A stretch of 32,000 nucleotides of DNA from Microcystis aeruginosa NIES-843 (lineage in GTDB: Bacteria > Cyanobacteriota > Cyanobacteriia > Cyanobacteriales > Microcystaceae), in contig NC_010296.1 of NCBI RefSeq assembly GCF_000010625.1, positions 3,720,001 through 3,752,000 on the forward strand. The letters are read 5' to 3'. The position numbers were made by a program, and so were the translations under genes. Below are positions 5,469 to 21,678 of this stretch, one piece after another. Numbering within the stretch: position 1 is the stretch's first letter; each line of letters begins with the position of its first letter. The notes below the pieces were generated by a model that was not told where the DNA came from, did not search any database, and was given only the letters and a program-made list of their open reading frames with translations.

Positions 5469-6938
5469 TCATTTTTTAAGCATTTGGTTATAAACTTGTC
5501 GTGAAAGAATTGGGAAAAACTCTTTATCTTGATAAAACTTTTTTTCCTCTCCAAAGACAACTAAAATATAATGAGCTTTGTTATCAGGACTGACGATAAT
5601 AGCCGCATCATTTCGATTATTAAATGTCCAGCCCATCTTAGCATAAAATTGAGTGTTAACCGGGAGAGATTGACCTAAAAAGTTTTGGATAGGATTAAAA
5701 GGTTTTTCTTTCCACGCTTGAGGATGTAAATCTCGTTTAATTAATTGTTTAATCGCTTGGCTATAAGCTGGCGAAATGGCTTGTTCTTGCTCAATTTCGA
5801 GAAGCAATCTAGCAACGCTATAGGTATTTAAATAATTTCGTCTCGGTGGTGAGCTTTTGCCGTTAAGCTGACGAATTTGTTGGTCTGGTCCGGCTGGATC
5901 CTCGAGTAGATTGGGGATAGGAAAAGTTTTCTGACTAATATTAAGGGGGTAATTAACAGAATCAACAAAATAGGATGCAAAAAAATCATTAAGAGCATAA
6001 CGTTTTCTCCTCCATTCGTTGAGTTTTTCTGGTGTGAGGTCTTTTTGACTCGATTTGGTTTGAGTAATGTTATCAACAATAATACTAGCCGATTCATTAT
6101 CGGAATCTTTAATCATTTTAGAAATAACTTTGAGTTTTTCTGGAGGAATTTGATTCGGCTCAATTCCTTGATAATAATATTGACTATAGAGAACTACTAG
6201 CCAGAAAAGCTTGACAATACTAGCCGGATATCTCAATTCACTATCTTGATAAGCAGCATAAGCGCAACATTCGGATTGATTTAAGTCAACTAAACTGATA
6301 GATAATTTATCTATTGGTAACTTTCTAGATCGAGCTAAACTTACAATATTGTCAACGATTTTTTGCAATTCTTTATCTTGATAAAAAGTAGGCGACTGTT
6401 TAACGTTATAAGTTAGCTGATTAGACTGACTAGGAAGTTGAGGTGTTAAAGGTGTTAGGGACAAATCATTAACGGGCGTTTTTCTGGGCAGATTAGTTGT
6501 ATTTTGCGAGCTTACTATCAGGTTAATTTGATAATCTAAGTTATCTTCTTGCGTCTCTATGACTAGCGAATAGTCGCCTGTTTCCGACAGAATCGTTTTA
6601 TAATCTCCTTGAAGATTTTGGTATTTATTACTTGGAAAAACTAGGCTTATTTTTTGATTAGTTGTTAATTGCAATTGCTGTCCTTGAATGCCCTGAAATT
6701 CATAACATAGGGTTTTATTGTGATCAACTTTACCTCCAATGGACTTAGGAACACCGTTAATTAACAATAATTTAGTTATCCTACAGGATTCGTTTTTGGA
6801 GGAGTTTAAGATGAGATACAGAGCGATTGCAGATGTTACAAAAAAAGAAATTAAGATGGGCAAAAACCTAGACCATTGGATATGGTAAGTCTTCGATTGT
6901 GTTCTGACTTTTATTGACTTTCTTCTTTTTCTTTCCAT
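5469..6938 (-). CDS. Membrane-anchored serine hydrolase, class-A beta-lactamase-like, with an N-terminal PPC-like beta-sandwich domain
   Basis: The 489-aa ORF has an N-terminal TM segment (FLPILISFFVTSAIALYLIL). It carries an SxxK motif (ASIVKLF), an SDN motif (KDSDNES) and a KTG-like motif (AKMGWT) in the class-A order and spacing. An upstream about 70-aa domain is shared with the neighbouring lipoprotein. Confidence 0.75.
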   Translation of the reverse strand: MERKRRKSIKVRTQSKTYHIQWSRFLPILISFFVTSAIALYLILNSSKNESCRITKLLLINGVPKSIGGKVDHNKTLCYEFQGIQGQQLQLTTNQKISLVFPSNKYQNLQGDYKTILSETGDYSLVIETQEDNLDYQINLIVSSQNTTNLPRKTPVNDLSLTPLTPQLPSQSNQLTYNVKQSPTFYQDKELQKIVDNIVSLARSRKLPIDKLSISLVDLNQSECCAYAAYQDSELRYPASIVKLFWLVVLYSQYYYQGIEPNQIPPEKLKVISKMIKDSDNESASIIVDNITQTKSSQKDLTPEKLNEWRRKRYALNDFFASYFVDSVNYPLNISQKTFPIPNLLEDPAGPDQQIRQLNGKSSPPRRNYLNTYSVARLLLEIEQEQAISPAYSQAIKQLIKRDLHPQAWKEKPFNPIQNFLGQSLPVNTQFYAKMGWTFNNRNDAAIIVSPDNKAHYILVVFGEEKKFYQDKEFFPILSRQVYNQMLKK

Positions 6939-6940
6939 GA

Positions 6941-7795
6941 TTAAGTTCCTACCTTATAGTTAATAATTTTCCAATTTTCACTCTCTTTTTTAAACCAATA
7001 GGTAACATTTTTTTGATAAGTCTGGGTTGGGGTTCCACATCCAGCACTTCTGGGACCATGGAGTGTAAGTTGTTCCGTTACATTGACTGTTATTGAAGGT
7101 GACGAACCTGAAGGATCAAAAGAGACTATCCGATTAATATTGGAAAAATCATAAGTATAATAACAGCCTTTAGAGCGCAGCCAACCCACTGTCCCCCCAC
7201 AGATTCCATCATTACATTTTTCTAAGGTATTAGAATAAAGTTCTCCGGTGGCGTATTGCTTCACTAAGCTGTCGTCAAAAGAAGAACCGAAAGCCTGTCT
7301 TTTAACTTCATACCAACGTTTAACAAGTTTTGCTGCTTCATCTTGTGTGAGATCATGGGAAGATGAGGGAGATGGAGAGAGTCTTGGTGTCGGTGTCGGG
7401 GAAGAAGCGAGCGTTCCTAAACTTATATCTATCTTAAAAGTTTTAGAACCTTTGGGGGCAGCAATTTGCAGCAAATACTTTCCGTCTTCTGGCAATTTTG
7501 TTCCTTGTAAAATTTGATTGTCTGGACTATAAAGCCACACACAGATATCATCATCTGTGTTATAGCTAAGGTTTTGTCCTGACTTTCCTGTAAAAGTGTA
7601 TCCGACAGCTTTAGTGGCACTAACCTGATTAGATTTTGTGATAGTTTCAGTTGTTAGGTTAACATTTTCTAGATTTTCTGCAATGAGAATAGCTGTGGGT
7701 TTTTGAGGACATTCTGAAGTTGTTTGAGGTTGATTAAACTGAAAATTACAACTACTGAGAAAAAAGAGAGATGAATAAATAAGGATCTGTTTCAT
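6941..7795 (-). CDS. Lipoprotein with a PPC-like domain, a Pro/Ser linker and an ARC6-IMS/DUF4101-like C-terminal domain
   Basis: I moved the start to ATG 7795. That gives MKQILIYSSLFFLSSC, a lipobox-like LSSC, and removes the overlap with the upstream gene. The C-terminus (AAKLVKRWYEVKRQAFG...ELYSNTL...WLRSKGCYYTYDF...ENWKIINYKV) matches the DUF4101 pattern found in ARC6/Ftn2. Confidence 0.7.
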   Translation of the reverse strand: MKQILIYSSLFFLSSCNFQFNQPQTTSECPQKPTAILIAENLENVNLTTETITKSNQVSATKAVGYTFTGKSGQNLSYNTDDDICVWLYSPDNQILQGTKLPEDGKYLLQIAAPKGSKTFKIDISLGTLASSPTPTPRLSPSPSSSHDLTQDEAAKLVKRWYEVKRQAFGSSFDDSLVKQYATGELYSNTLEKCNDGICGGTVGWLRSKGCYYTYDFSNINRIVSFDPSGSSPSITVNVTEQLTLHGPRSAGCGTPTQTYQKNVTYWFKKESENWKIINYKVGT

Positions 7796-7824
7796 GACTT
7801 TACAAGTGCCGAAAATATTTAGGA

Positions 7825-9195
7825 TTAGTTTTGTTTTTCCTTTAACCATTTTCCCCAATAATAAAAAGGAATAACTCCTCCCAAACCAAGAGCAAGAAAA
7901 ATACAAATAAGCATTAATATTCTGGTTTCTAAGGGAAGTGTACGCCCAAAAAAATCAAGGGTATAAGGTTTAGATTTTGATGCTACTTTCTGAGTAAAAA
8001 CTGTGGCTACATATTCGCCTCCTCGTCGAACGTTGGGTTGGATATAACTGATTTCGTATCGTCCTTGAATCGCATCAAGGAAAATTTCTAATTTCTCGGC
8101 AATTTCATCAGCATCACCAGCAAATTCAGTAACTCCTCCTGTTAACTTCGCAATTTCCGCTAACTGTTTTTGATCTACAAATTCTTTTTCTAGTTGCTCT
8201 CTAGTTGCTTGGGATAATTTTGGGTTATTAATATCTCCACGAACAGCAGGTTTACCTAAGGAATATTTTTTGCCTAATTGTTGTGGGGTTAAGCCATATC
8301 CTAGGGTATGAACAACAATATCTTTATTGTTCTGAAGATTGGCTAAAGTTTTCTGAACTTCTTGATAATTACTATTATTATCAAAGCCATCAGAAAGGAG
8401 AATAATTGAGAGTCGTGGTTGAGGTTTTAAAGGTTTTCCTTCTTTATCTTTAGGATAGAAACGACCTTCTTTATCGTTTTTAAAAAATTTGACGGTTTCT
8501 TTGAGAGCTTGATAGAAGTTGGTCGTTGCACAAGGAGTTTTATCCGCAAGACTACCTAGAAAATTAGTTAGTTTAACATCTTGCACTAAATTAAAATTAT
8601 CGAGAGTTTCTGAAGTAACTTTTGGGTAATAATCACAGGCTCCAGGCTTGTCATTTTTACCTTCTACCCCAAAGGGAACAATAGATAAATAGGTGTTGCC
8701 TTTACGCTCTGAGGCTAATTTAATAAATGTTCCCAGCGCGTTAATTGCTGCATCTAATTTTCGCTTTCCTTTAGCAACCGCTTTGGCATCACATTTTGTG
8801 TTGAGATCCTGAGAACAATTCATACTACCACTAAAGTCGATGAGAACGACAATCCAAGCATCAGGAGGAGTCGTTTCTCGGGGAGACTTCCAGTCAAAAG
8901 GTAGTTGTTTTCCTTGATAAGTTTTGTTGTTTTTTTTATCAAGAACTTTCAGCTGAAAATCGCTTTCAGCTAAACCCATAATCGGTTTACTTTCTTCTCC
9001 TGTCACTTGAATTTGAAGAGTCACTTTATCGTCGATGTCCTCAATATCTGTGATTTCAGGTTTAATTCCCCAAGCTGGGGTAATAAGAGCGGTTAACATA
9101 ATCATTGATAAACTAAGCTTGTGGGTCAAGGAAGCGATTGTAGAAGACGAAACGATAGATTTTGGGTTCATCGGGGTTGTGGTTATCTTTAACAT
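7825..9195 (-). CDS. Exported von Willebrand factor A (vWA) domain protein with a C-terminal membrane anchor
   Basis: It has the MIDAS motif VVLIDFSGSM and later ILLSDGFDNNS. The N-terminal region is signal-like (MIMLTALITPAWG). The C-terminal TM segment is ILMLICIFLALGLGGVIPFYYW. The start is uncertain (9195, 9171 or 9105); the first two overlap the 3' end of the upstream gene. Confidence 0.8.
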   Translation of the reverse strand: MLKITTTPMNPKSIVSSSTIASLTHKLSLSMIMLTALITPAWGIKPEITDIEDIDDKVTLQIQVTGEESKPIMGLAESDFQLKVLDKKNNKTYQGKQLPFDWKSPRETTPPDAWIVVLIDFSGSMNCSQDLNTKCDAKAVAKGKRKLDAAINALGTFIKLASERKGNTYLSIVPFGVEGKNDKPGACDYYPKVTSETLDNFNLVQDVKLTNFLGSLADKTPCATTNFYQALKETVKFFKNDKEGRFYPKDKEGKPLKPQPRLSIILLSDGFDNNSNYQEVQKTLANLQNNKDIVVHTLGYGLTPQQLGKKYSLGKPAVRGDINNPKLSQATREQLEKEFVDQKQLAEIAKLTGGVTEFAGDADEIAEKLEIFLDAIQGRYEISYIQPNVRRGGEYVATVFTQKVASKSKPYTLDFFGRTLPLETRILMLICIFLALGLGGVIPFYYWGKWLKEKQN

Positions 9196-10219
9196 GGAAG
9201 GTGAGTAGGTTGTTGTGTTTAAGGGGAATTTCTTTGGTGCTAGTTAAAGGTATGCCGTTGAGTTCGATAAGGTTGTAAAATGTTGGGTTAGGATCTAAAA
9301 TGGCATCACGGCGGGTAATTTTGATGTCAGCAATATGGGGGGGGAGTCCGGGGAGATAAATATCCGATCCTCTTTCTACACCATCAGAACCTTTAGTTTT
9401 GGGGACAGAACCAATTTTGATGATTCCTTTGGCGGGAAGTTGAATCGACAGTCCCTCTTCGATTTTTTCCGCATCCGATTCACTGACAAATTTGAGCGTT
9501 TTATGGATGTTAGGAAAGACTGAATTAATGGATGTAAATTGAGGATCGATGCTTTCGAGTTCGGGAATGATTTTTCTGTACTCGAATCCTTTACCGGCTC
9601 TCAGTGCCGCCATGTAGCTAGGAGAATTAGTAATTGTAAAGGTTAGGCCGAGCAATAAGCCTAAAATGGCAAATCCGAGGGGATCTTCTGCTTTTCTAAA
9701 CGCTTCTGAAGTGCCTAACCATTGACGAATAAATTCAAAGATTCCCACCGCTACTAAACTGGCAACACCCGCACCGATGATGCTAGTATATAACCGTTGT
9801 CGAAAGCGATCGCGATCCCCCGCTTCCATGCTGTAAAATTGCCAAGTAAGTCCTTCGGCTAATCCAACGGCTGCACCGACAAAAAGCCAACCTAAAAGTC
9901 TGCCTGGAAATTCAGCAACTCCAGATTGAATTAATAGCTGAAAGATTCCACCCGCAGCTAATCCAGCAATCAATCCGATTAAGGTGGCAATTAATAGGGG
10001 AACTAAAGCAATCCGAAAGTTGAGTTTAGGACGGGTGGGATTACTAATAAATATTTCATTCATTACCATCCCAATCCCTAAGGATATAGCGACGCAGGGG
10101 AAAAGAACCACCTCTGGAAACCGAGACAGGATTTTTAAATCAGTCAAGAAAATCTGACCGATATTCCAGCCAATTAAAGCCGAGGTTATTCCTGCTAGTA
10201 TGTAAAGCCAAATTCTCAT
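9113..10219 (-). CDS. Polytopic membrane protein with a C-terminal degenerate FHA-like domain
   Basis: The 368-aa ORF has about 6 hydrophobic, Gly-rich helices in residues 1-200. The C-terminus (KIGSV...GSDIYLPGLPPHIADIKITRRDAIL...ELNGIPLTSTKEIPLKHNNLLTF) follows the FHA layout but lacks the canonical GR and SxxH residues. Confidence 0.65.
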   Translation of the reverse strand: MRIWLYILAGITSALIGWNIGQIFLTDLKILSRFPEVVLFPCVAISLGIGMVMNEIFISNPTRPKLNFRIALVPLLIATLIGLIAGLAAGGIFQLLIQSGVAEFPGRLLGWLFVGAAVGLAEGLTWQFYSMEAGDRDRFRQRLYTSIIGAGVASLVAVGIFEFIRQWLGTSEAFRKAEDPLGFAILGLLLGLTFTITNSPSYMAALRAGKGFEYRKIIPELESIDPQFTSINSVFPNIHKTLKFVSESDAEKIEEGLSIQLPAKGIIKIGSVPKTKGSDGVERGSDIYLPGLPPHIADIKITRRDAILDPNPTFYNLIELNGIPLTSTKEIPLKHNNLLTFHVKDNHNPDEPKIYRFVFYNRFLDPQA

Positions 10220-10230
10220 AGGTTTAAAAA

Positions 10231-12540
10231 TTATCCTCTTGGGGGAGTTGACGAATCGATAATTGGTTTTACTTTACCGCAAATTGGTGTATTACTTAAT
10301 GTTTGACCTAGTTGAGCAGCTACATCACACTTCAAAAGGTTATAGGTATTCTTTCCATAGTTAATCACTCCATCAACATCAATCTTAATAGATGGCTCCT
10401 TTTTAAGTCTAGATTTAAGACTTTCTTGGTATTGTAAAATAGCTTTAACCCAAGCTTCTTTATCTTCTACTTCAGTCATAGGACTAAGGTAAATTTCAAA
10501 TTCATTATTGGGATCAAGAACCTTAATTACACTAGATGAAGATGAAGATGAAGTATCAAGACCAAAAGCTTGGTCCAATTCTTTTACTAAAGTTTCTAAA
10601 CTCAATTTGGTCTTTTGTGATTTATCAAATTCCGAGACTGCCTTTTCAATTTTTTGGTCTCTTGTCGGAGATGGGGTAGCCACTTTAACTTGAGAAAACC
10701 CTAGCTTTTTACAATTGTCAGCAGTTGCTTGAGTTGCTTGCAGTTGCATATTTTGAAGCAGATTACATTTTAGAGCTTGATAAGTTTTTCCATCTTTATC
10801 AATAATGCCATCGAAATCATCAGAATTAGATGGTGTAACTTTATATAATTGATAATACAATATAGACAAAATCCACTTTTCTTTATCTTTATTATCTTCT
10901 GTTTTATTTAGAGTCTTAAGCTCAAAAGAGTTATTGGGATCGAGAATTTTTGAAATAGCTTCATCAATCTCATTCTTGTTATGTTTAGAAGCATCTGCTC
11001 TAGTAGTTTGCTTCAAATCTTGTTGAATTTGTAGTAATGACCCTTTAGTCTTTGGAAAGCTTTTGATCGCTTTTTTAATAATCGGCGATTCTGAATTGTT
11101 TGATCCTCCGGGTAAACCGGGTACAGATAAATTAGCTAAATTCAATAATCTTTGAAGGAAAAATCCTCCTAAAGTGAATATAAGCAAAAAATAAATAATA
11201 GCAATAAAACAGCCAGATGCTCCACCTCTAAACACGGAAGATAGGAGAAATATTGCTGTTTCTTTTATTTCTCTACCTGTCCATTGTTGCTTAGGTATTT
11301 CTCTTTTAACTGGAAGTCCAAAAATAGAAGTTTCATTTTTTAATCCCAGACTTATATAAGTTTTATATATTTTTCCCCAAAGACCGGTTTCATCTGATAA
11401 AAATTTGGCGGCTACCTCTGTTAGTTTTGGTCGATCAATCACATTAAGAATGAGGATATTAATGCCTTTGGTAATTTTATCAGATATAACTGAATCTTGA
11501 TTGAGAATAACCCTTAAAATTTCCTGTTGAAAACTCTGAGATATTGGATAATAATCCTTCTCTTTTTTCATTATCCAAGCGACAAAATCTGGCAGCTTTT
11601 CAGGGCAAATGATGGCTTGTAGCGTCAAGAGGCGTACTTTATATTTATCATAAATTCCCTGTTGATAAGCATATTCAGAGCCTTCATTTTCAAAAATATC
11701 CCCCCAAAAGGTTGTATAATCCTGTTGAATTTTAGGATTGTTCAAAGCCTTTTCTATAGTTACTAAATTGTTTTGAAAGTTTCCTGTACGGCAGGAATTT
11801 CTGACGGCAATTTTAACAGAAGTTTCTTTTAATGGTGTAGTAAGCTGAGGAATACTCGCTATTTGTGATTTTATTCTGCCCTCTGCTTTTTGATTCGCAG
11901 GATGAATGACTAAAAAGCGATTTGGTTTCTCTAAATCTTCTACATTCCAGGCCCAAGAAATCAATTCATTATATCTTGCTGGGTCAGTTTTAGAGGCAAT
12001 TTTATGAATGATTAAAGCAGGATATGGTGTCTGCTTCTGAGGAATAATTATCGGTGTTTTTCCTTCCCAAATCCCATCCAACTCATGCGGAATATAGTCA
12101 TTAATTTGAGTTTCAGTATCGTCATATTCTGTAGGATAACCGACTTGTTTATGATCGGAGGGGTTAAAAGTTGGCATTCCATTTTTCATGTACCAAGATA
12201 CAAGATCAGGCAGCTTACCCCTTTCCTGACACAAGAAATAGCGATAGAGAGATACACACCGTCCCCGTTCATCTATCCCCCGTGTGACGACGGCAATGAC
12301 TGACCAAGCCTCTCCATGATATTCCACTTCCCGTCCAATAATGGCGGGATTTTGGCTAGATGCGCCTTCAGAAACGGCAAATTCCCGATTTTTGATCGCT
12401 AACTGTACAGGTCTAGGAATTTTAGCAAGGGTTGAGTTCATGTACTCTCCCGAAAAACCCCGCGACCTCCACTCACCATTATCGTCAGTGCCATCGACTA
12501 AAATACCCGTGCTAAATTCATGAATGTGAATAATAGTCAT
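10231..12540 (-). CDS. Large single-pass membrane protein, paralog B (769 aa), unknown family
   Basis: It has a soluble N-domain of about 440 aa (MTIIHIHEFSTGILVDG...). Its TM segment is CFIAIIYFLLIFTLGGFFLQ. The C-terminal region consists of two internally repeated domains of about 120-130 aa. It is a tandem paralog of 12621-15221. Confidence 0.8.
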   Translation of the reverse strand: MTIIHIHEFSTGILVDGTDDNGEWRSRGFSGEYMNSTLAKIPRPVQLAIKNREFAVSEGASSQNPAIIGREVEYHGEAWSVIAVVTRGIDERGRCVSLYRYFLCQERGKLPDLVSWYMKNGMPTFNPSDHKQVGYPTEYDDTETQINDYIPHELDGIWEGKTPIIIPQKQTPYPALIIHKIASKTDPARYNELISWAWNVEDLEKPNRFLVIHPANQKAEGRIKSQIASIPQLTTPLKETSVKIAVRNSCRTGNFQNNLVTIEKALNNPKIQQDYTTFWGDIFENEGSEYAYQQGIYDKYKVRLLTLQAIICPEKLPDFVAWIMKKEKDYYPISQSFQQEILRVILNQDSVISDKITKGINILILNVIDRPKLTEVAAKFLSDETGLWGKIYKTYISLGLKNETSIFGLPVKREIPKQQWTGREIKETAIFLLSSVFRGGASGCFIAIIYFLLIFTLGGFFLQRLLNLANLSVPGLPGGSNNSESPIIKKAIKSFPKTKGSLLQIQQDLKQTTRADASKHNKNEIDEAISKILDPNNSFELKTLNKTEDNKDKEKWILSILYYQLYKVTPSNSDDFDGIIDKDGKTYQALKCNLLQNMQLQATQATADNCKKLGFSQVKVATPSPTRDQKIEKAVSEFDKSQKTKLSLETLVKELDQAFGLDTSSSSSSSVIKVLDPNNEFEIYLSPMTEVEDKEAWVKAILQYQESLKSRLKKEPSIKIDVDGVINYGKNTYNLLKCDVAAQLGQTLSNTPICGKVKPIIDSSTPPRG

Positions 12541-12594
12541 TATTTTAATCCTTATCTAATTCTTTGTGATGTTGAGCATAGGTTTAAAAATTAT
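12541..12594. repeat. Tandem-duplication junction relic
   Basis: 12541-12575 copies 15222-15256 with one mismatch; that source segment is the 4-nt spacer plus the last 31 nt of the third GTPase gene. 12577-12594 (cataggtttaaaaattat) is identical to 10217-10234, which is the start codon of the FHA-membrane gene plus its spacer. Confidence 0.75.
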
Positions 12595-12620
12595 TATTCT
12601 CCTGATGGATTAGTTGATGA

Positions 12621-15221
12621 CTAGGATGGATCAATTGGTTTTACTTTATCGCAAATTTCTGATGTCTCCTTACTTAATGTTTTACCCAGTTGAGCAGCTA
12701 CATCACACTTCAAAAGGTTATAGGTATTCTTTCCATAGTTAATCACTCCATCAACATCAATCTTAATAGATTGCTCCTTTTTAAGTCTAGATTTAAGACT
12801 TTCTTGGTATTGTAAAATAGCTTTAACCCAAGCTTCTTTATCTGCTGGTTCAGTCATACGACTAAGGGAAATCCCAAATTCATTATTGGGATCAAGAACA
12901 TTAATTACATTATATGAAGATGAAACAGAAAAAGCCTCATCTAATTCTTTTACTAAAGTTTGTAAACTATATTTTGTCTTTTCTGGTTTATCAAATTCTG
13001 GGACTGCCTTTCTGATTGCTTCCTCTTCTGTTGTAGTTGGAGTTGGAGTTGGAGTTGGAGCGGGAGTTGAAGATGAAGCGGGAGTTTTAGCCACTTTAAC
13101 TTGAGAAAACCCTAGCTTTTTACAATTGTCAGCAGTTGCTTGAGTTGCTTGCAGTTGCATATTTTGAAGCAGATTACATTTGAGAGCTTGATAAGTTTTT
13201 CCATCTTTATCAATAATGCCATCGAAATCATCAGAATTAGATGGTGTAACTTTATATAATTGATAAGACAATATAGATAAAATCCACTTTTCTTTATCTT
13301 TATTATCTTCTGGTTTATTTAGAGTCTTAAGCTCAAAAGAGTTATTGGAATCGAGAATTTTTGAAATAGCTTCATCAATCTCATTCTTGTTAGGTTTAGA
13401 AGCATCTGCTCTAGTAGTTTGCTTCAAATCTTGTTGAATTTGTAGTAATGACCCTTTAGTCTTTGGAAAGCTTTTGATCGCTTTTTTAATAATCGGCGAT
13501 TCTGAATTGTTTGATCCTCCGGGTAAACCGGGTACAGATAAATTAGCTAAATTCAATAATCTTTGAAGGAAAAATCCTCCTAAAGTGAATATAAGCAAAA
13601 AATAAATAATAGCAATAAAACAGCCAGATGCTCCACCTCCTCTAAACACGGAAGATAGGAGAAATATTGCTGTTTCTTTTATTTCTCTAAATACTGGTTC
13701 ATACCAAGGTATATCTCTTTTAACTTTAATATCAAAATTATAAACTTCATCCCCCTTCAATTTATGGCGTTTATATACGTCACTAGGAATCTTTTCCTGG
13801 GCGAGATGATAAAAGAAAACGGTTAAACTATATCCTTGATCTGATGGAACTTTTTCTTCTAGTTTATCAAATAGGTGAGCAAGATGGATGTATTTTTGAG
13901 TTTTTTCACTGGGATAAAAAAGAGAATCCCAAACTTTACTTAAGTCATCTTTAATTTCTTGCCAAGGTGCATCATCTAGTTTTCTTTCTTTTAAACTTTT
14001 TTTCAGTTTTTTACTGGTATCATCTTTGTATATTCTGCCCCAGAGTCCTTTTTTATCTGATAAGAGTTTAGCTGTAGCATCTATCAATTCTGGCTGCTCA
14101 ATGACATTAAGAATAAGTCTATCAATACCTTGGGTGATTTTACTAAATATAGTAGGTGCAAGGGGGTAATCACCTTGTGGGTTGATTGCGTTTACAATCT
14201 CCCCTTGAAAACTCTGAGATATTGGATAAGAATCCTTATCTTTGTTCATTATCCAAGCGACAAAATCTGGCAGCTTTTCAGGGCAAATGATGGCTTGTAG
14301 CGTCAAAAGACGTACATTAGATTCATTATAAATTCCCTGTTGATAAGCATCTTTGGAGCCTTGTCCTTCAAATATGGAATTCCAAAAGGTTTTATAATCC
14401 TGTTGAATTTTAGGATTGTTCAAAGCATCTTCGATAGGGGCTAAATTTTCTTGAAAGTTTCCTGTCCGGCAGGAATTCTTAATAGCAGTTCTGATTAGGG
14501 GTTCTTCGGGTATAGCCGGGGGAAGTTGAGGAATACTGTTTATTGTGGCTCTTATGGTCTCCTCTGCTTTTTTGCTGGCGGGATGAATGACTAAAAAGCG
14601 ATTTGGTTTCTCTAGAGCCTCCACATTACAGGCCCAAGAAATCAATTCATTATATGTTGCTGGGTCAGTTTTAAAGGCAATTTTATGAATGATTAAAGCA
14701 GGATATGGTGTCTGCTTCTGAGTAATAATTATCGGTGTTTTTCCTTCCCAAATCTCATCCAACTCAGGCGGAATATAGTCATTAATTTGAGTCCCAGTAT
14801 CGTCATATTCTGTAAACTGACCGACTTGTTTATAATCAGAGGGGTTAAAAGTTGGCTTTCCATTTCTCGTATACCAACATAAAAGATCAGGCAGCTTACC
14901 CCTTCCCTGACACAAGAAATAGCGATAGAGAGATGCACCCCGTCCCCGTTCATCTATCCCCCGTGTGACGACGGCAATGACTGACCAAGCCTCTCCATCA
15001 TATTCCACTTCCCGTCCAATAATGGCGGGATTTTGGCTAGATGCGCCTTCAGAAACGGCAAATTCCCGATTTGTGATCGCTAACTGTACAGGTGTAGGAA
15101 TTTTAGCAAGGGTTTTGTTCATGTACTCTCCCGAAAAACCCCGCGACTTCCACTCACCAGCACCGCCAGTGGCATCGACTAAAATACCCGTGCTAAATTC
15201 ATGAATGTGAATAATAGTCAT
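12621..15221 (-). CDS. Large single-pass membrane protein, paralog A (866 aa), unknown family
   Basis: It has the same architecture as paralog B. It carries an insertion of about 100 aa before the TM helix and a longer Thr/Pro linker between the two C-terminal repeats. The start ATG 15221 is 4 nt downstream of the preceding GTPase gene. Confidence 0.8.
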   Translation of the reverse strand: MTIIHIHEFSTGILVDATGGAGEWKSRGFSGEYMNKTLAKIPTPVQLAITNREFAVSEGASSQNPAIIGREVEYDGEAWSVIAVVTRGIDERGRGASLYRYFLCQGRGKLPDLLCWYTRNGKPTFNPSDYKQVGQFTEYDDTGTQINDYIPPELDEIWEGKTPIIITQKQTPYPALIIHKIAFKTDPATYNELISWACNVEALEKPNRFLVIHPASKKAEETIRATINSIPQLPPAIPEEPLIRTAIKNSCRTGNFQENLAPIEDALNNPKIQQDYKTFWNSIFEGQGSKDAYQQGIYNESNVRLLTLQAIICPEKLPDFVAWIMNKDKDSYPISQSFQGEIVNAINPQGDYPLAPTIFSKITQGIDRLILNVIEQPELIDATAKLLSDKKGLWGRIYKDDTSKKLKKSLKERKLDDAPWQEIKDDLSKVWDSLFYPSEKTQKYIHLAHLFDKLEEKVPSDQGYSLTVFFYHLAQEKIPSDVYKRHKLKGDEVYNFDIKVKRDIPWYEPVFREIKETAIFLLSSVFRGGGASGCFIAIIYFLLIFTLGGFFLQRLLNLANLSVPGLPGGSNNSESPIIKKAIKSFPKTKGSLLQIQQDLKQTTRADASKPNKNEIDEAISKILDSNNSFELKTLNKPEDNKDKEKWILSILSYQLYKVTPSNSDDFDGIIDKDGKTYQALKCNLLQNMQLQATQATADNCKKLGFSQVKVAKTPASSSTPAPTPTPTPTTTEEEAIRKAVPEFDKPEKTKYSLQTLVKELDEAFSVSSSYNVINVLDPNNEFGISLSRMTEPADKEAWVKAILQYQESLKSRLKKEQSIKIDVDGVINYGKNTYNLLKCDVAAQLGKTLSKETSEICDKVKPIDPS

Positions 15222-15225
15222 TGTT

Positions 15226-16140
15226 TTAATCCTTATCTAATTCTTTGTGATGTTGACCGGTACAAAGCCAGTAAATCGGGGAAACTAAACCAAAGGGTCG
15301 CCACCGCTTCGGATCGCGGATAATAGAAGTTGTTCCTTGGCGATCGCGTTGTTTTTCGATCGAGTTGGGTTCGGGATAATTGGTTCCCAACGTACCAAAG
15401 GCAGAAGTGGCAAAATAGTCCACTTCACCTCCTCCCCTATCTACCCAGTTTTCTAATTTATTTTGCATCAGAGGAAAGCGTCTTTGTGTCAATTTTCTCG
15501 GTTCATGACGACTCACCCACAGTTGACTCAGTTCGCACTTACTAACCGCAAAAGCAACGCGGCGCTGTTTGGGATTAATATCCACCCTGTCTAAAGCCGC
15601 TAAAAATTTTTCTAGTCCAATAGCATAGTCTTTATCTTTGCGGTGAGAGGTTCCATCCACTAACAATAAAAGACCTGTAGCCACCACACAGTCTTCGAGA
15701 TAGTCAACTAAGCGCGGATCGCCGGTTTTGTTAATGAGATCCCGAAGAAACTCGCCGGAATAATCTTTACAGTTAACATTGAGACGTATTGCGCTAGAAG
15801 ATAGGCCTCTTTGCAGATTTTTCAAAGAAAATTGTTCTTTGAGAACAATACTTAATCCATAATCTTTGACTTCATCAACGGTGGCTTCTAGGGGAGTTGG
15901 TTCTAATTCTAGTCCCTGTTCCAAGATGTTCTGTGCCATGTTCATCAGTTGTGCGCTGGCTTCTTGGTTCCCCACTGGAGTCACCGATTGAACTGGACTA
16001 TCGGCCTTAGCATTTGGCCAATAGGCGAGGGAAGCCATATAGGCGGTTTTACCAGCATTGCGATCGCCAATAACCCGTATTTCGGCATTGGCATCTTTTA
16101 ATTCAGGAGCTTTTGGTTTTAACCAGTCAAACGCTTTCAT
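15226..16140 (-). CDS. Small P-loop GTPase-like protein, paralog 3
   Basis: I moved the start to ATG 16140, which is preceded by AAGGAG and a 6-nt spacer. It overlaps the upstream stop by 14 nt. Motifs are G1 GDRNAGKT, G3 DYSGE, G4-like VSKCE and G5-like ATSAFG. The C-terminal motif IRDPKRWRPFGLVSPIYWL is shared with paralog 2. Confidence 0.75.
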   Translation of the reverse strand: MKAFDWLKPKAPELKDANAEIRVIGDRNAGKTAYMASLAYWPNAKADSPVQSVTPVGNQEASAQLMNMAQNILEQGLELEPTPLEATVDEVKDYGLSIVLKEQFSLKNLQRGLSSSAIRLNVNCKDYSGEFLRDLINKTGDPRLVDYLEDCVVATGLLLLVDGTSHRKDKDYAIGLEKFLAALDRVDINPKQRRVAFAVSKCELSQLWVSRHEPRKLTQRRFPLMQNKLENWVDRGGGEVDYFATSAFGTLGTNYPEPNSIEKQRDRQGTTSIIRDPKRWRPFGLVSPIYWLCTGQHHKELDKD

Positions 16141-16972
16141 TTTTGGCTCCTTGATTTGGTTTTTTACTGAGCCAATAGAGAGGTTCAATTAGATTATAAG
16201 GTTGCCATGAGTTTGGTTGTCTAATCACCGAAGCCGGTTCTTCTCCTTTCATCCGATCTTCTCGGTTAGGACGGGGATTATCTCTGCCTAAAACGCCAAA
16301 GGTAGAAAGGGCAAAAAAACGCAGATTTTGGGGAATAACTTTTTCTCGCAAGGTTTTAGTAGTTTCTCGTAAATGGACAGCGAACAAATCAATTTCTGGG
16401 TCAAGCCTACCGGGCCAAATTTCTCCTCTTTCACATTTACTCATAACTATTGCTAACTTCAAATTCTGAGAACGACCCCGCTCATCCATTAATTTAAGGA
16501 ATTGTTTCATGATTCTGTTATAAAAGTTATCAGTTCCTGGTTCCCATCCTGTTAGCATAATTAGACAGCCGATGACATCGGTAAAACATTCATTAATAAA
16601 ATCTTCATGGATAGGCTTTCTTGCACTGGGACTGGCAATTGCCTCAAAGACTTCTCCGGGATAATCTCTAGCGGTTAATTGAAAAGTCTCCGTGGAACTA
16701 TACCAATAGGGTTTGGCTGTGATACCAAAGGAATAAAAGGGTAAGTCATCTACTGACTCAATCTCTTGTCCGATGACGGTTCTATCTAGATCGGCCGCTT
16801 GTTTGAGAATATTTTCAGCTTTTTCAGCAAGTATTCTTGTGGCAGGATTTTGGGGGTTGACAGTAAATAGTTTTTTGCCTTGTTTGTGTTCTTTAAAGTA
16901 GGATAAAGCCGCTAAATAGGTGGTTTTTCCTGCTGCTGTCGGTCCAATTACAACAATATTTCCACTGGTCAT
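16127..16972 (-). CDS. Small P-loop GTPase-like protein, paralog 2
   Basis: Motifs are G1 GPTAAGKT, G3 DYPGE, G4-like MSKCE and G5-like ALSTFG. The C-terminal motif is IRQPNSWQPYNLIEPLYWL. An AGGAG lies 5 nt upstream of ATG 16972. Confidence 0.8.
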   Translation of the reverse strand: MTSGNIVVIGPTAAGKTTYLAALSYFKEHKQGKKLFTVNPQNPATRILAEKAENILKQAADLDRTVIGQEIESVDDLPFYSFGITAKPYWYSSTETFQLTARDYPGEVFEAIASPSARKPIHEDFINECFTDVIGCLIMLTGWEPGTDNFYNRIMKQFLKLMDERGRSQNLKLAIVMSKCERGEIWPGRLDPEIDLFAVHLRETTKTLREKVIPQNLRFFALSTFGVLGRDNPRPNREDRMKGEEPASVIRQPNSWQPYNLIEPLYWLSKKPNQGAKNESV

Positions 16973-16991: not shown

Positions 16992-17765
16992 TTATTTTGC
17001 GAGATGACTGCCCAAATAAATCCAAGGGAGTTCTAATAATTTTCGATTATATATGCTCGTAATGAAACATCTAATTGTTAACCCTTGAATACTACGGTTA
17101 AGTTGATTGATTTGAGGGTGAATCGGTCGAAAATAACGCTGAAAAACATAGTTATCTCTCTCTTGCCATGTCATAGGTTGGAAATCAGGATTAAAAGCGA
17201 GTTTTCTGGCTTCTTCTTCGAGATCGACTCGGAGTAAATCGGCTTTATTTAAACAGAGGAGAAGATGTCGAATTTTCGGACAATCTTGCTGGAAAAATTC
17301 AAGCCAACGGTCAAAACGATTACACCATTGTTGTCTGGTGATAAAGTCATCTTTGTTGACTTGACCGGTCGGTTTAATGATGTCCCGATAGGGCGGTAAA
17401 ATCAACATAATTCCTTCAGCTTTTCTGATCGTTTCGAGAAATCTTTGCCACTCATCAGGTTGATTTTTTTGCCAGTATTGTCGCCAGATTTCACCGGGGG
17501 TGTCCAACCAATCCAAGGCAATCATTTTCTCCCCTGTGGGAAGGGTGACATTAACTTCTATGTACTGCTCATTAATTCCTTCGGGGGCGATACTACCAGT
17601 TGCTTTTGGAGAGCCAAGTTCTAGATCTAAAAAGAGTCCTCTAAGAAACTGATAATCGGGATAAGTAACTTTGACATAATTTCCCTTGGGGTTAGCTAAT
17701 TCCAAGACTAGGTGAGTTTTACCTGTTTCGCGATCGCCAATATAAATAACTCCCAAGCACTCCAC
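16992..17765 (-). CDS. Small P-loop GTPase, paralog 1, with a canonical NKxD motif
   Basis: Motifs are G1 GDRETGKT, G3 DTPGE and G4 LNKAD. The track start GTG 17765 overlaps an AGGAGG (17770-17765). TTG 17756 lies 8 nt after that Shine-Dalgarno sequence and is the more likely start. Confidence 0.8.
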   Translation of the reverse strand: MECLGVIYIGDRETGKTHLVLELANPKGNYVKVTYPDYQFLRGLFLDLELGSPKATGSIAPEGINEQYIEVNVTLPTGEKMIALDWLDTPGEIWRQYWQKNQPDEWQRFLETIRKAEGIMLILPPYRDIIKPTGQVNKDDFITRQQWCNRFDRWLEFFQQDCPKIRHLLLCLNKADLLRVDLEEEARKLAFNPDFQPMTWQERDNYVFQRYFRPIHPQINQLNRSIQGLTIRCFITSIYNRKLLELPWIYLGSHLAK

Positions 17766-18092: not shown

Positions 18093-18800
18093 ATGAGTAA
18101 CCCAGACAGCAAACTTAAGCTTCTTGAAGAAATGGCACTTTTGGCTAAAAGCTCCCCTGCAAACAGCAAGGAGAGACAAAAATGGCTAACAAAACTAACC
18201 AATGAGATTCAAAACTCTAATAAAGTGTACTGTAAAAATATCTATAATTTTCCTAAGTCTGTCTATCAGGATATTTTTCACGAAGCTCTACAGCAGACTT
18301 TTTTAGAGATTTTTGAAAAAATTGACCTGTACGACCCAAGTAAAGGTAATGTCTTGGCATGGGTAAGTTTTTTGCTCGATAAGCGATTTATCGATGCTGT
18401 CAGGGAACATTTAAAACTGCGACATAGACAAGATAATGGCAAGCGAATCAGAATTTATGAGCAATCTTTGGATGTTCCTCTCCAGTCGGAGCAATCAAGC
18501 TGGAACCATGCCCCAGATACTTCCTTGCTTGATATAATCGAGCAAACTGAATCTCTCTCCCCCCAAAAAGATTGGGAGAGATTATGGGATTTTATCCAAA
18601 AAGATCCTAGAGATTGTTTTCGGCAGACTCACATCGAAAAGCATCCGGAGGCTAATTTTCAAGCAATCTGTATAAGGCGATTTAATGGACAATCTTGGAA
18701 GGAAATGTCAACAGAATGGGGAATCTCCCTAGCAACTTTAAGCAGCTTTTATCAACGCAGCGTTGATAAATTGCAACCAATTTTTCAAGAATATCTTTAG
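18093..18800 (+). CDS. Sigma-70 family RNA polymerase sigma factor, ECF-like, with regions 2 and 4 only
   Basis: The region-2-like segment is FEKIDLYDPSKGNVLAWVSFLLDKRFIDAVREH. The region-4 HTH is CIRRFNGQSWKEMSTEWGISLATLSSFYQRSVDKLQ. AAGGAG lies 9 nt upstream of the ATG. Confidence 0.7.
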   Translation: MSNPDSKLKLLEEMALLAKSSPANSKERQKWLTKLTNEIQNSNKVYCKNIYNFPKSVYQDIFHEALQQTFLEIFEKIDLYDPSKGNVLAWVSFLLDKRFIDAVREHLKLRHRQDNGKRIRIYEQSLDVPLQSEQSSWNHAPDTSLLDIIEQTESLSPQKDWERLWDFIQKDPRDCFRQTHIEKHPEANFQAICIRRFNGQSWKEMSTEWGISLATLSSFYQRSVDKLQPIFQEYL

Positions 18801-18818
18801 AAATAGGAGACAAAAACC

Positions 18819-19733
18819 ATGATGCCACTAGCTGAACGTTTAACTTTTACAGTCCCCCTGAGCGGTGCTGATTTTAAATTAGCTCAAAAGTTTAGTTGCG
18901 AGCAGAAAGATGCCGATAAAAGTAAACAGGTTTTTCTAAATACTTTAGCTGTGCTTGCTGTTAACTTTTACTGCCAGTGTTTGAAAGTAGAAACAAATTT
19001 AGAGGAAAGCACTATCGGACATTATAATCGGCGAATTTTAATGGATAGTGCTGATTTAAAGATCGATGTTCTCGGTAAATTAGAATGTCGTCCGGTTTTG
19101 CCAAATGAAAATATCTGTTATGTCCCGTCCGAGGTATGGTCAGATCGAGTGGGTTATGTTGTGGTAGAAATTGATGAAGAAGCGAAGAAAGCTATTTTAT
19201 TTGGATTTGTCGAGCAGATAGAAACTAACGAATTACCATTAGCTCAATTACCAGATATTGACAATTTAGTTGATTTACTTCTTCTGGCTAAAAACAAACA
19301 ACTTCTCGAAAGAACTTTTGCCAAGAATTGGGATAATAATATTTCAAAGAGAATCCTTGATGCTAAACAGCAAAATTTTGTTTGCCTGAATGATCCCGCT
19401 TTACCTACAATTGATAAATCTATCACCTCTCCTCTCTATAAAGCTAAATACATTACTCTGAAAAGACGGACATTTATCCTATTTGTTAGGATAACCCCTA
19501 CAAAAGAGGGAAAGTTTCAACTTCTTGTGGAAGTTGAATCCGATAGAGGAGAAAAAATTCCATCTGATTTGAATTTGAAGCTATTATCTTTATCCGACCA
19601 AACTTTGAATGCAAGTCAAACAAAAAGAGGTAATTATATCTCTTTGAACTATAAGCTTCAATTGGGAGAGAGTTTTCAAATACAAGTGAAGCGAGCAGAT
19701 GAAAGTCACACAGAACAATTTTCTTTTGACTAA
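18819..19733 (+). CDS. DUF1822-like protein
   Basis: The sequence FTVPL...LAQKFSCEQKDADKSKQVFLNTLAVLAVNFYCQCL...LGKLECRPVLPNE..YVPSEVWSDRVGYVVVEIDE matches my memory of the DUF1822 N-terminal signature. It is preceded by an AGGAGA RBS and follows a sigma factor gene, as is typical in cyanobacteria. Confidence 0.7.
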   Translation: MMPLAERLTFTVPLSGADFKLAQKFSCEQKDADKSKQVFLNTLAVLAVNFYCQCLKVETNLEESTIGHYNRRILMDSADLKIDVLGKLECRPVLPNENICYVPSEVWSDRVGYVVVEIDEEAKKAILFGFVEQIETNELPLAQLPDIDNLVDLLLLAKNKQLLERTFAKNWDNNISKRILDAKQQNFVCLNDPALPTIDKSITSPLYKAKYITLKRRTFILFVRITPTKEGKFQLLVEVESDRGEKIPSDLNLKLLSLSDQTLNASQTKRGNYISLNYKLQLGESFQIQVKRADESHTEQFSFD

Positions 19734-19826: not shown

Positions 19827-20693
19827 ATGCCAAACCAAAAAGATTTATCGGATATTCGCAATTATCTCTACGATCAAGCTGAAGTGAGATGGTGGTACAG
19901 CTTGTGGTTATCTTTATGCGCTCAAGTTTTAGCATTAATTGCGACAGTCAACAATAAATTGTGGCTTTTAGCTATTGCCGGTTTTCTTGCCTTAATCACT
20001 CCAATAGCAGTAGCATGGTTGCGAGAATGGGCTAATAACTTGACACAAAAAGCTGATAAATGTAGAAGAATGATTTTATATGCTGATAGCTTAGGAGAAG
20101 ATATTCCCAGCCATGAGTTAGCTATGGTTAGAGCTTGGACAACGGGAATTAAATTGCAACAAGCTCCTTTTACTTCTCCTTATTATTCATCTTCTCTATC
20201 TAATAGTCCACAAAGATTAATGGATATTACAACAGAATCTGCTTACTTTACTGAGTTTTTAGCGGCAAAAACGGTCAATTATTTACTGGTATTTTTAGTT
20301 ATTTCAATTTTAATTTTATCAGGAATTATTTATTTTGCAGACTTCGCAACCTCTACGGCTACAATTAGCCAAGAAAATCAAGATATGAGTGGGGTAAAGT
20401 GGGCAGTTAAGGCAGCATTAACAGCTATTTCTTTTATTCTATCTGGGGATATATTACTGCTTTGGAAAAAGTATTCAGATCTGAAATTATCTGCTCAAAG
20501 TACTTTTCAAAAATGCGCCGAACTTCGTTACGATAAATCCTTATCTATTTCTGAAGCTATGCAGGTTGTTGAGGACTATCATCTAGCGTTGATTCAGAGT
20601 CCACCGATTCCTCTAAAACTTTACCTAACCTACAGAGATCCCTTGAATCAATCTTATCAAGATAGTCATTCAATTAGTTCTAATCAACCCTAG
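19827..20693 (+). CDS. Four-TM membrane protein, possibly an S-4TM-type effector
   Basis: The 288-aa ORF has two N-terminal TM helices (WYSLWLSLCAQVLALIATV and LWLLAIAGFLALITPIAVAWL). These are followed by a helical soluble segment of about 90 aa and then two more TM helices (VNYLLVFLVISILILSGIIYF and AVKAALTAISFILSGDILLLW). The family name rests on topology and gene context only. Confidence 0.55.
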   Translation: MPNQKDLSDIRNYLYDQAEVRWWYSLWLSLCAQVLALIATVNNKLWLLAIAGFLALITPIAVAWLREWANNLTQKADKCRRMILYADSLGEDIPSHELAMVRAWTTGIKLQQAPFTSPYYSSSLSNSPQRLMDITTESAYFTEFLAAKTVNYLLVFLVISILILSGIIYFADFATSTATISQENQDMSGVKWAVKAALTAISFILSGDILLLWKKYSDLKLSAQSTFQKCAELRYDKSLSISEAMQVVEDYHLALIQSPPIPLKLYLTYRDPLNQSYQDSHSISSNQP

Positions 20694-20744
20694 TTTTTCT
20701 TGGGCAATGCCCAGCTTGCTCACAAATTATCTAATATTAAAAAC

Positions 20745-21206
20745 ATGGGAATTCCTCCTTTTAATCAGCACGGCTTTTTGCCGCCGGGAGAACATAAATT
20801 AGATAGCTGGGAAGAGCTTGTAGAAAGATTTGGAACCACTCGAAGAAGACAACGTCTTCTAGTCGGACTAAAAAGAGTATTGCTAAATCTTCAACAAGCA
20901 GGTTGCCAAAAAGTCTATCTTGATGGTAGTTTTGTGACTAAAAAGGGAAAACCCAATGATTATGATGGTTTTTGGGAAAGTGAGAAAGTAAATCCAGAAA
21001 AGCTTGATAGTATCCTGCTGGATACTTCCTTAGAAGGATGTCGAGAGCAAAAGAAAAAGTATGGAGGAGAATTATTAACCGCAGATACGAGAGCCGTAAA
21101 TGGTCAAACGATTTATGGTTATTATACAATAGATGTAGAAAGAGGAATTACTAAAGGTATTGTTTGCGTTGAGTTACAGTTAGTGGATTTACAGCTATGG
21201 TTTTGA
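20745..21206 (+). CDS. Minimal polymerase-beta-fold nucleotidyltransferase
   Basis: YLDGSFVTKKGKPNDYDGFW fits the hG[GS]-x(9-13)-DxD nucleotidyltransferase signature. ATG 20745 gives the N-terminus MGIPPFNQHGFLPPGEH. The track start TTG 20700 is less convincing. Confidence 0.55.
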   Translation: MGIPPFNQHGFLPPGEHKLDSWEELVERFGTTRRRQRLLVGLKRVLLNLQQAGCQKVYLDGSFVTKKGKPNDYDGFWESEKVNPEKLDSILLDTSLEGCREQKKKYGGELLTADTRAVNGQTIYGYYTIDVERGITKGIVCVELQLVDLQLWF

Positions 21207-21673
21207 ACGAAAAGGGATATGAACTTAGAAAAGCTCAAGCTCAAGAGTTTGAGAAAGCAATAGTAGAATTTTCTGACTATGCAATTCAACATCCTGAAAT
21301 CGATTCAAGAATCTTGAAAGCAAGGGAAAATTCTTTACGGACTTTGTTAGCGAGAATCAACACAGAACTGGCAGAATATGAAGACAAACAGCTAGAAAGT
21401 TTAGCTTTGGCTGCTAAAAATTATCCAAAAATTAGTCAGCAAAGATATAAAAGCTTAACTAAATTAACTAATAAAATTCAAGAATCTAATCAAGTACAAA
21501 ATCAAAATATATATAGTTCTTCCCTGGATATTTCTGGAATAGCATGGCAGCAAACCTTGAAGCAAGTATTTGACAAAATCGACCAATATAATCCTAATAA
21601 AGAAACGGTATCGCAGTGGTTTTTATCGCTGTTCAAGCTTCAATATCGTAAGCTGGAAAAAGAGTCTTTATAG
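21197..21673 (+). CDS. Chimeric ORF with a unique helical N-terminus fused to a partial duplicate of the sigma-factor N-terminal half
   Basis: It overlaps the nucleotidyltransferase stop (ATGGTTTTGA). Residues from about 65 to 158 (LESLALAAKNYPKISQQRYKSLTKLTNKIQESN...VFDKIDQYNPNKETVSQWFLSLF) parallel residues from about 10 to 105 of the sigma factor at 18093. The ORF stops before region 4. Confidence 0.45.
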   Translation: MVLNEKGYELRKAQAQEFEKAIVEFSDYAIQHPEIDSRILKARENSLRTLLARINTELAEYEDKQLESLALAAKNYPKISQQRYKSLTKLTNKIQESNQVQNQNIYSSSLDISGIAWQQTLKQVFDKIDQYNPNKETVSQWFLSLFKLQYRKLEKESL

Positions 21674-21678
21674 GTTTA

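Follow-up and report, generated by a model that had tools for sequence, protein, structure and literature searches.

How a genome comes to carry two adjacent copies of a large membrane-protein gene that are nearly identical in some stretches and strongly divergent in others is the question raised by a 32,000-nucleotide (nt) stretch of Microcystis aeruginosa NIES-843 (hereafter the window, to which all coordinates refer). The two copies, here termed UP (upstream paralog) and DN (downstream paralog), follow three GTPase genes in an operon; according to the open reading frame (ORF) list and its translations, the operon and both paralogs are all on the minus strand. Loci compared with the window are designated by L-numbers. 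An initial annotation of the window described a recent tandem duplication with an intact junction scar, conserved ends and a divergent centre. The explanation that we consider probable as a whole differs in several respects: an old, shared and copy-number-polymorphic duplication of a recombining hypervariable gene, whose product would be the variable sensor or specificity subunit of a DO-GTPase-like switch.

The junction between the two copies retains clear traces of a head-to-tail duplication. Positions 12541–12575 repeat positions 15222–15256, comprising the last 31 nt of the GTPase 3 gene plus a 4-nt spacer, with one mismatch in 35 nt, and positions 12577–12594 repeat positions 10217–10234 exactly (18/18). 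Each junction pattern occurs exactly twice in the 32-kb window, with zero occurrences expected from shuffled sequence, which confirms the initially annotated junction base by base. In coding-strand orientation, the joint reads ...TTTTTAAACCTATG / C / TCAACATCACAAAGAATTAGATAAGGATTAAAATA-ATG, corresponding to the unit end, a filler base and the unit start, the last made up of the final 31 nt of GTPase 3, stop codon included, and the 4-nt spacer. The end of one unit is thus fused to the beginning of the next in head-to-tail arrangement, as in a tandem segmental duplication, and the unduplicated state with identical flanks, with GTPase 3 directly upstream and the gene for a 368-amino-acid (aa) protein directly downstream, is present in 12 single-copy loci. 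An assembly artefact is countered by the presence of the junction in the finished NIES-843 genome, the complete genome CP134413.1, the NIES-87 draft and five contigs from metagenomes or metagenome-assembled genomes (MAGs). A single illegitimate-recombination event once duplicated a unit of ~2.4–2.7 kb, which takes in the last 31 nt of GTPase 3 and runs as far as the ATG of the following gene.

To place this event in time, we compared related Microcystis loci, which were gathered by protein look-ups; an exact-pattern junction scan of metagenome contigs gave no match, a genome-contig scan with a single protein gave one locus only, and the two-copy loci came from the protein-based look-ups. A single long copy lies between GTPase 3 and the 368-aa gene in 12 Microcystis loci (L001, L003–L007 and L083–L088), two copies are present in eight (the window, L002 (CP134413.1), L008, L081, L082, L089 (NIES-87), L090 and L092), and a single short copy in one (L093). 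The same joint, including the filler base, is found in 8/8 two-copy loci, indicating that the duplication happened once. There are two scar haplotypes: the scar of L008 and L082 differs from the GTPase 3 tail at 7/35 positions, while the tail itself is unchanged in L008. Furthermore, the short forms of the two scar lineages have identical deletion borders, yet their synonymous divergence (dS) in the cytosolic part is 0.16, compared with a synonymous diversity (piS) of 0.05–0.12 in the flanking genes. Because the junction is common to eight loci, occurs as two scar haplotypes and is accompanied by a dS between short-form lineages above flanking piS, the duplication is old relative to strain divergence and shared among strains. 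The two-copy haplotype is inherited or exchanged as a polymorphism within Microcystis.

These data bear directly on the claim that the duplication is recent. A recent strain-specific duplication would explain the near-identical blocks as leftover identity and the centre as having diverged later by diversifying selection or import of foreign alleles, and it accords with the almost perfect scar of NIES-843, with the 246-nt perfect run between the copies and with a dS of 0 over ~200 codons. It leaves unexplained why the same junction, in two diverged haplotypes, recurs in eight loci, why short-form lineages with a common deletion differ by a dS of 0.16, why the cytosolic two thirds show a strong cross-strain orthology signal (155–212 orthology sites versus 2–20, described below), and why the identical tracts lie elsewhere in other strains. 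We regard this alternative as largely refuted and give it a very low probability.

The intactness of the scar has another explanation. As read from the sequence, the scar gives DN the TAA stop, AAGGA motif and 4-nt spacer that also precede UP. The scar would be preserved without being young because translation of DN needs these elements, and the argument from an intact scar to a young one accordingly does not hold: a scar constrained as provider of a ribosome-binding site and a stop codon has become the translation-initiation region of the second copy, and a duplication is not necessarily young because its scar is 'intact'. The junction has no minus-strand terminator-like site, and promoter-like sites are no commoner there than by chance. 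UP and DN are probably co-transcribed, since the coding strand of the junction lacks a terminator-like site.

Copy number is polymorphic in both directions. The states observed are long only, short only, long plus short, and short plus long-like, with most strains carrying one long copy. In NIES-87 (L089, 7001–11742) the order is reversed, a 788-aa copy following the short form. The spacer upstream of the first L089 copy contains the T that elsewhere characterises the scar (AAAATAATG), which suggests a conversion or crossover spanning the 5′ boundary. The existence of a single short copy (L093) implies that copy number also falls, presumably by unequal crossing-over. Other cyanobacterial lineages have tandem arrays of the large gene of their own, with three copies in L032 and L074, two in L056 and L069, and a full copy plus a partial copy in L021 and L041. 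Within an array, the copies are 39–60% identical to each other; in several lineages the tandem paralogs share 49–60% identity with one another and about 30% with those of Microcystis. The arrays being independent, duplication of this operon member recurs.

We next consider the similarity between the two copies within the window. Alignment of 10678–11275 (DN) with 13089–13689 (UP) gave 6 mismatches and one 3-nt indel (99.0% identity), with a dS of about 0, i.e. no synonymous differences over ~200 codons; the longest perfect run between the copies, 246 nt at 13394–13639, lies inside this near-identical tract. The first 240 nt of the genes are 95.4% identical; in the centre, identity falls to 82.8% and there are 267 gap columns. 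The mosaic identity and the figures first given for it are therefore borne out. The description 'ends conserved, centre divergent' holds in part: the centre is divergent and conserved blocks exist, but the sliding-window profile has several high and low blocks and is patchier than a contrast of ends and centre. In the first 80 codons, UP and DN differ by 0 synonymous and 11 non-synonymous changes; positive selection between the NIES-843 copies was considered here and set aside as suggestive but not significant (our own binomial estimate is ~0.07).

The difference of ~100 aa in length between UP and DN is mainly one 83-aa gap at UP aa 408–490. It was initially taken for an insertion in one paralog; the segment is present in at least 90% of the family (an alignment of 51 members from many cyanobacteria) and contains residues conserved in at least 90% of members (W420, W431, Y444, A448, F451 and F470). 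Since the missing segment is family-conserved, the short form is a deletion derivative rather than the ancestral form, and one copy lineage lost the conserved ~83-aa segment after the duplication. DN nevertheless keeps all 53 family-invariant residues, and so does UP.

Two sources of the mosaic have to be weighed, namely exchange between copies and uneven constraint. We used a permutation test for the longest concordant run of population-polymorphic sites in a multi-strain nucleotide alignment (5000 permutations, four two-copy loci, two of which are metagenome assemblies, L081 with a 100-N gap and L008 with frameshifts). The longest runs were 115, 54, 209 and 55 sites, compared with permutation maxima of 27–47 (p = 0.0002 in each of the four loci). 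In the NIES-843 tract, 115 consecutive population-polymorphic sites are concordant between the copies. The tracts occupy alignment columns 1821–2120 in the window, 2449–2536 in L002, 62–766 in L081 and 484–881 in L008, corresponding to the TM (transmembrane) helix and first periplasmic repeat, the second repeat, the N-domain and the helical domain, respectively. Over-long concordant tracts that include synonymous sites and lie at lineage-specific positions are the signature of gene conversion.

Without any exchange, the mosaic would reflect a conserved TM helix and first repeat next to a drifting cytosolic centre. In accordance with such uneven constraint, the TM helix and its flanking motifs are conserved in all alleles, with a non-synonymous diversity (piN) of 0.026–0.054 around aa 537–566. 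In part of the near-identical tract, though, the other alleles are only 78–88% identical in nucleotides to the NIES-843 copies; constraint alone fails to explain a tract in which dS is 0, synonymous sites included, while other alleles diverge to this extent. Moreover, the tract spans 115 strain-polymorphic sites, tract positions vary by strain, and crossed as well as concerted informative sites are found in the C-terminal third. We consider it highly improbable that the copies have not exchanged sequence.

Quartet counts for pairs of two-copy genomes show where the exchange occurs. Orthology, UP pairing with UP and DN with DN, is supported by 155–212 sites, nearly all of them upstream of the TM helix, compared with 2–20 'concerted' and 1–9 'crossed' sites, which are concentrated in the TM and periplasmic third. 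In a nearest-neighbour scan, the closest allele of either copy shifts at intervals of a few hundred bases and often belongs to another strain, so that both copies are patchworks. The cytosolic two thirds thus keep orthology, while the TM and periplasmic third has been reshuffled among copies and strains; both copy-to-copy conversion and inter-strain homologous recombination operate. The permutation test and the concerted and crossed sites uphold gene conversion or recombination as one cause of the mosaic; homogenisation falls mainly in the TM and periplasmic third, and not at both ends as had been proposed. Ongoing exchange between the copies and with alleles of other strains, mostly in this third, produces the strain-specific near-identical tracts.

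The short form illustrates this modularity. Its cytosolic 1290 nt differ at 0–1 sites among NIES-843 (10231–12540), CP134413 (L002, 10001–12346) and L090 (7001–9301), whereas the periplasmic thirds of these three short copies differ at 35–62 sites and the flanking genes by 1–4%. The cytosolic parts of the long form differ by 10% on average and by up to 21%. The short form therefore gives the impression of a cytosolic cassette that spread recently and became joined to reshuffled outer modules. An array of 6/12-nt tandem repeats (GTTGGA-type on the plus strand, 13030–13071) encodes, in UP only, a (Pro-Thr)n linker between the periplasmic repeats. The linker varies among alleles in length and sequence and may be slippage-prone.

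The large gene also stands apart from its neighbours in diversity. Among 15 intact alleles, piS is 0.178, piN is 0.119 and piN/piS is 0.67, with local windows reaching 1.4–2.2, while nine neighbouring genes in the same strains have a piN of 0.007–0.046, a piN/piS of 0.11–0.50 and a piS of 0.047–0.121. The piN of the large gene is therefore 3–17 times that of its neighbours, and its nucleotide identity to other strains is 77–93% compared with 88–99.7%. These statistics are pairwise counts. Within Microcystis the large gene is by far the most variable gene of the operon, and the recognition- or conflict-type signature suggested initially stands at the level of pattern. A diversity-generating retroelement was rejected as the source of this variation: the 263 mismatches involve all bases, with A making up 27% and 32% of them compared with 35% of the composition, and the ratio of transitions to transversions is 133:130.

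Structural models of the large protein were obtained with AlphaFold, at full length from a 51-sequence alignment (mean predicted local distance difference test (pLDDT) 80) and for the N-domain alone (pLDDT 86, predicted template modelling score (pTM) 0.86). The UP model consists of an alpha/beta N-domain (aa 1–230), a helical domain (aa 240–520) and one long TM helix (~aa 531–559), followed by a C-terminal region with two homologous helical repeats that contain conserved cysteines. The C-terminal third is predicted to be periplasmic, and the N-domain and helical domain cytosolic, because there is no signal peptide. Searching 1.84 billion proteins with an N-domain profile gave 406 representative clusters at E ≤ 0.001. 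A sequence profile search of the PDB with the large protein gave only spurious TM or coiled-coil matches, a full-length fold search gave only generic alpha-solenoid and weak TagF matches, and a profile of the two periplasmic repeats found only chance EF-hand matches in the PDB and nothing relevant. Peptidoglycan-binding repeats, suggested by a motif resemblance, are unsupported for Microcystis, as the window protein has no PF01471 match and only 3/51 distant members have one.

The fold search with the N-domain placed TagF in 6 of the top 7 ranks, including the top 5, with weak scores (E 4e-3 to 3e-2, TM-score 0.20–0.27, root-mean-square deviation 6–9 Å). TagF is described as binding the FHA protein Fha and repressing type VI secretion post-translationally (Lin et al. 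2018, as cited in PMC6612558). The present locus resembles that system in these weak N-domain matches, in having a kinase and a PP2C phosphatase near the operon, and in a next gene that is FHA by UniRef name only; it differs in that a Pfam scan of 19 window proteins recognised no type VI secretion gene. For the 368-aa neighbour, neither Pfam (E ≤ 0.5) nor a PDB sequence search recovered an FHA domain, and the FHA label that it first received has no source other than the UniRef name 'FHA domain-containing'.

The surroundings of the large gene provide a further indication of its role. For a conservation survey, 72 further cyanobacterial metagenome loci were fetched via the large gene, many of them on short contigs. 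The GTPase 2 and GTPase 3 genes are present in 61/72 loci, GTPase 1 in 42, the TM gene in 41 and the vWA gene in 38. In these 72 loci, the large gene is the least conserved member, with 27–41% identity compared with 40–65% for the others. As judged from these loci, a set of three GTPases, large gene, TM protein, vWA protein and ARC6-IMS protein is conserved across cyanobacteria. The best Pfam families of the GTPases are DO-GTPase1/2 (PF19975 / PF19993), with 22.4–25.8 bits for the window proteins compared with a cut-off of 27; DO-GTPase families are among the best matches of 9/9 orthologs, and two GTPase 3 orthologs exceed the cut-off (30.6 and 35.0 bits).

The described DO-GTPase systems have the gene of a partner, GAP1, just downstream of the GTPase gene; in the GAP1-N2 type, TM and extracellular domains are often found at the C-terminus of the partner, and kinases, PP2C phosphatases and TM-anchored vWA proteins are encoded close by (Kaur, Burroughs, Iyer, Aravind 2020, eLife; PMC7159879). 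The present operon is reminiscent of this arrangement in its paralogous TRAFAC GTPases with DO-GTPase1/2 as best families, in a large partner encoded directly after the GTPases, with a TM helix in its C-terminal part and extracellular domains that vary, in the TM-anchored vWA protein, Ser/Thr kinase and PP2C phosphatase near the operon, and in the combination of a constant core with one highly variable component. It differs in having three GTPases rather than one or two, and in the partner, which is equivalent in gene position only and has no GAP1 model among the matches listed for 51 family members. Zinc ribbons are N-terminal on 60% of DO-GTPase members (PMC7159879), whereas here there is no room for one: GTPases 1 and 2 start 8–10 residues before the P-loop, and the N-extension of GTPase 3 has no cysteine pairs. 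In addition, no nuclease, TIR, SLATT, tubulin, HSP70 or other recognisable effector occurs among the operon proteins, and the phyletic home is the cyanobacteria, which are not listed for either GAP1 type (PMC7159879).

Taken together with the diversity data, this likeness leads us to infer a function as an envelope sensor or specificity subunit. DO-GTPase-like GTPases would form the basis of an envelope-spanning switch, with the large protein as its variable sensor or specificity subunit; the periplasmic repeats would make contact with a variable ligand from outside or from the cell wall (for example a phage, kin or envelope state), the conserved cytosolic N-domain would talk to the GTPases, and the second copy would let one genome carry two specificities. 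Microcystis forms toxic blooms under heavy phage and strain-competition pressure. Within a conserved and unstudied operon (literature searches found no paper on the operon or the large gene), one gene stands out, with variation several-fold above that of its neighbours, modular recombination and a polymorphic copy number. This makes it a concrete candidate specificity determinant, for instance a receptor or a sensor of phages or kin, and its alleles form a natural allelic series.

Several observations weigh against this interpretation. Pfam holds models of GAP1, and no GAP1 domain was found among the matches listed at E ≤ 1 for 51 members of the large-protein family (the table of the first member plus the 25 commonest families). 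The large protein itself has no Pfam, NCBIfam or PADLOC family match, the absence from Pfam being the adverse point, and fold searches of its modelled N-domain yield only the weak TagF-like matches. The high piN/piS could partly reflect relaxed constraint. With regard to conversion, repeat mis-threading in the two metagenome loci could create false identical tracts, and the identical tract of NIES-843 is also identical to alleles in single-copy strains (L084 and L086); the tract allele thus circulates in single-copy strains, and double import and direct conversion therefore cannot be strictly separated.

A different function also has to be considered. The large protein could be a poorly constrained structural or envelope-morphogenesis component, involved for example in peptidoglycan or cell division, whose diversity stems from relaxed selection and the high recombination of Microcystis, the extra copy being neutral or in the course of being lost. 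Such a role would fit the envelope-like operon partners (ARC6-IMS, beta-lactamase-like and periplasmic vWA proteins), the broad, housekeeping-module-like conservation of the operon in cyanobacteria and the lack of matches of PADLOC defence models to the large protein or most of its partners. Likewise, overall piN/piS is below 1, the last operon gene decays in some strains, and some MAG copies have frameshifts. In all isolate genomes, however, the large-gene ORFs are intact, and family-invariant residues are kept in both copies. The raised piS (0.178 compared with 0.047–0.121) points to long-lived alleles over mere relaxation, and the local piN/piS windows, the independent tandem paralogs in other lineages and the putative membership of the GTPases in a clade described for conflict systems are likewise difficult to reconcile with a structural role, which we consider unlikely.

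The proposed sensor or specificity-subunit role invites comparison with clustered recognition genes. Plant NLR clusters such as RPP8 and bacterial surface-antigen families combine concerted evolution and copy-number flux with diversifying or balancing selection. The tandem pair shares with them patchwork identity, presence/absence and copy-number polymorphism, high non-synonymous diversity and long-lived alleles. It differs in having only two copies, with no silent cassette or invertase-type switching machinery, and in that exchange is dominated by ordinary homologous recombination, including recombination between strains. A bolder possibility, which we hold tentatively and with more doubt than belief, is that the operon represents a third type of DO-GTPase switch, found throughout the cyanobacteria, whose partner would be a new single-pass membrane sensor without sequence relation to GAP1, with alleles under balancing or diversifying selection and the duplication acting as 'fixed heterozygosity'. 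If true, one genome could hold two specificity alleles, one with an invariant short cytosolic module and one with a hypervariable long module, and conversion would reshuffle the periplasmic recognition modules, making the locus a bacterial analogue of clustered immune-receptor loci.

The coordinates of the junction elements, the paralogs and the operon genes are given in Table 1.

Table 1. Elements of the duplication and genes of the operon in the window
Feature	Position	Strand	Remarks
Scar part 2	12541–12575	-	Supplies TAA stop, AAGGA Shine-Dalgarno-like motif and spacing to the DN start codon
Filler base	12576–12576	-	Single base at the illegitimate joint; present in 8/8 two-copy loci
Scar part 1	12577–12594	-	Last base of the gene's last sense codon, stop, intergenic spacer and ATG of the 368-aa gene
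Original 5′ unit boundary	15222–15256	-	GTPase 3 tail and spacer
Original 3′ unit boundary	10217–10234	-	DN gene end through ATG of the 368-aa gene
Near-identical tract	13089–13689 (UP); partner 10678–11275 (DN)	-	TM helix and first periplasmic repeat
Segment missing from DN	13752–14000	-	UP aa 408–490; helical, family-conserved; same deletion borders in all short forms
GTPase 1	16992–17765	-	257 aa; first in transcription order
GTPase 2	16127–16972	-	281 aa; GTPase 3 paralog, ~30% identity
GTPase 3	15226–16188	-	320 aa as listed (TTG start); putative divergent DO-GTPase relative
UP paralog, 'long form'	12621–15221	-	866 aa; exact match BAG03892.1
DN paralog, 'short form'	10231–12540	-	769 aa; exact match BAG03891.1; ORF intact
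Multi-TM protein	9113–10219	-	368 aa; its own ATG is the one copied into the scar
vWA-domain protein	7825–9195	-	456 aa as listed; N-terminal signal or TM segment, C-terminal TM segment; conserved operon member
ARC6-like IMS domain protein	6941–7906	-	321 aa as listed; conserved operon member
Class A beta-lactamase-like membrane protein	5469–6938	-	489 aa; last, least constant operon member

Two of the listed starts call for adjustment. The true start of GTPase 3 is likely the ATG at 16140, which would give a protein of 304 aa and a 14-nt overlap with GTPase 2, as in the gene calls of other strains, and the mechanical ORF start of the vWA protein is probably too far upstream, the gene calls of other strains giving 424–426 aa. 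At the other end of the operon, the beta-lactamase-like gene (5469–6938) is shrunk to 117–126 aa in L002 (15596–15949) and L086 (11833–12213) and missing in most distant loci; it is thus a dispensable or decaying operon member.

Further genes lie beyond the operon, three of them of signalling or conflict type. A Ser/Thr kinase with TPR repeats (24056–26173) and a pseudokinase-PP2C protein (26285–28108) are encoded 9–13 kb from it, and a vWA protein (28825–30207), within 15 kb of it, has a weak C-terminal match to Effector-associated domain 10 (E 0.02). Genes for an ECF-like sigma factor and a DUF1822 protein (18093–19733) are divergent from GTPase 1 and present in every Microcystis locus that reaches that far; they may be operon regulators. 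Between the DUF1822 gene and the kinase-TPR gene lies a block of ~4 kb (19827–23721), which encodes a 288-aa TM protein, a DUF6932 protein, an overlapping 158-aa ORF, a 549-aa trypsin-like protein and a 117-aa ORF. L002 (CP134413.1) and L089 (NIES-87) lack this block at the corresponding position, at least part of it is found in other strains, and it is a presence/absence island adjoining the operon.

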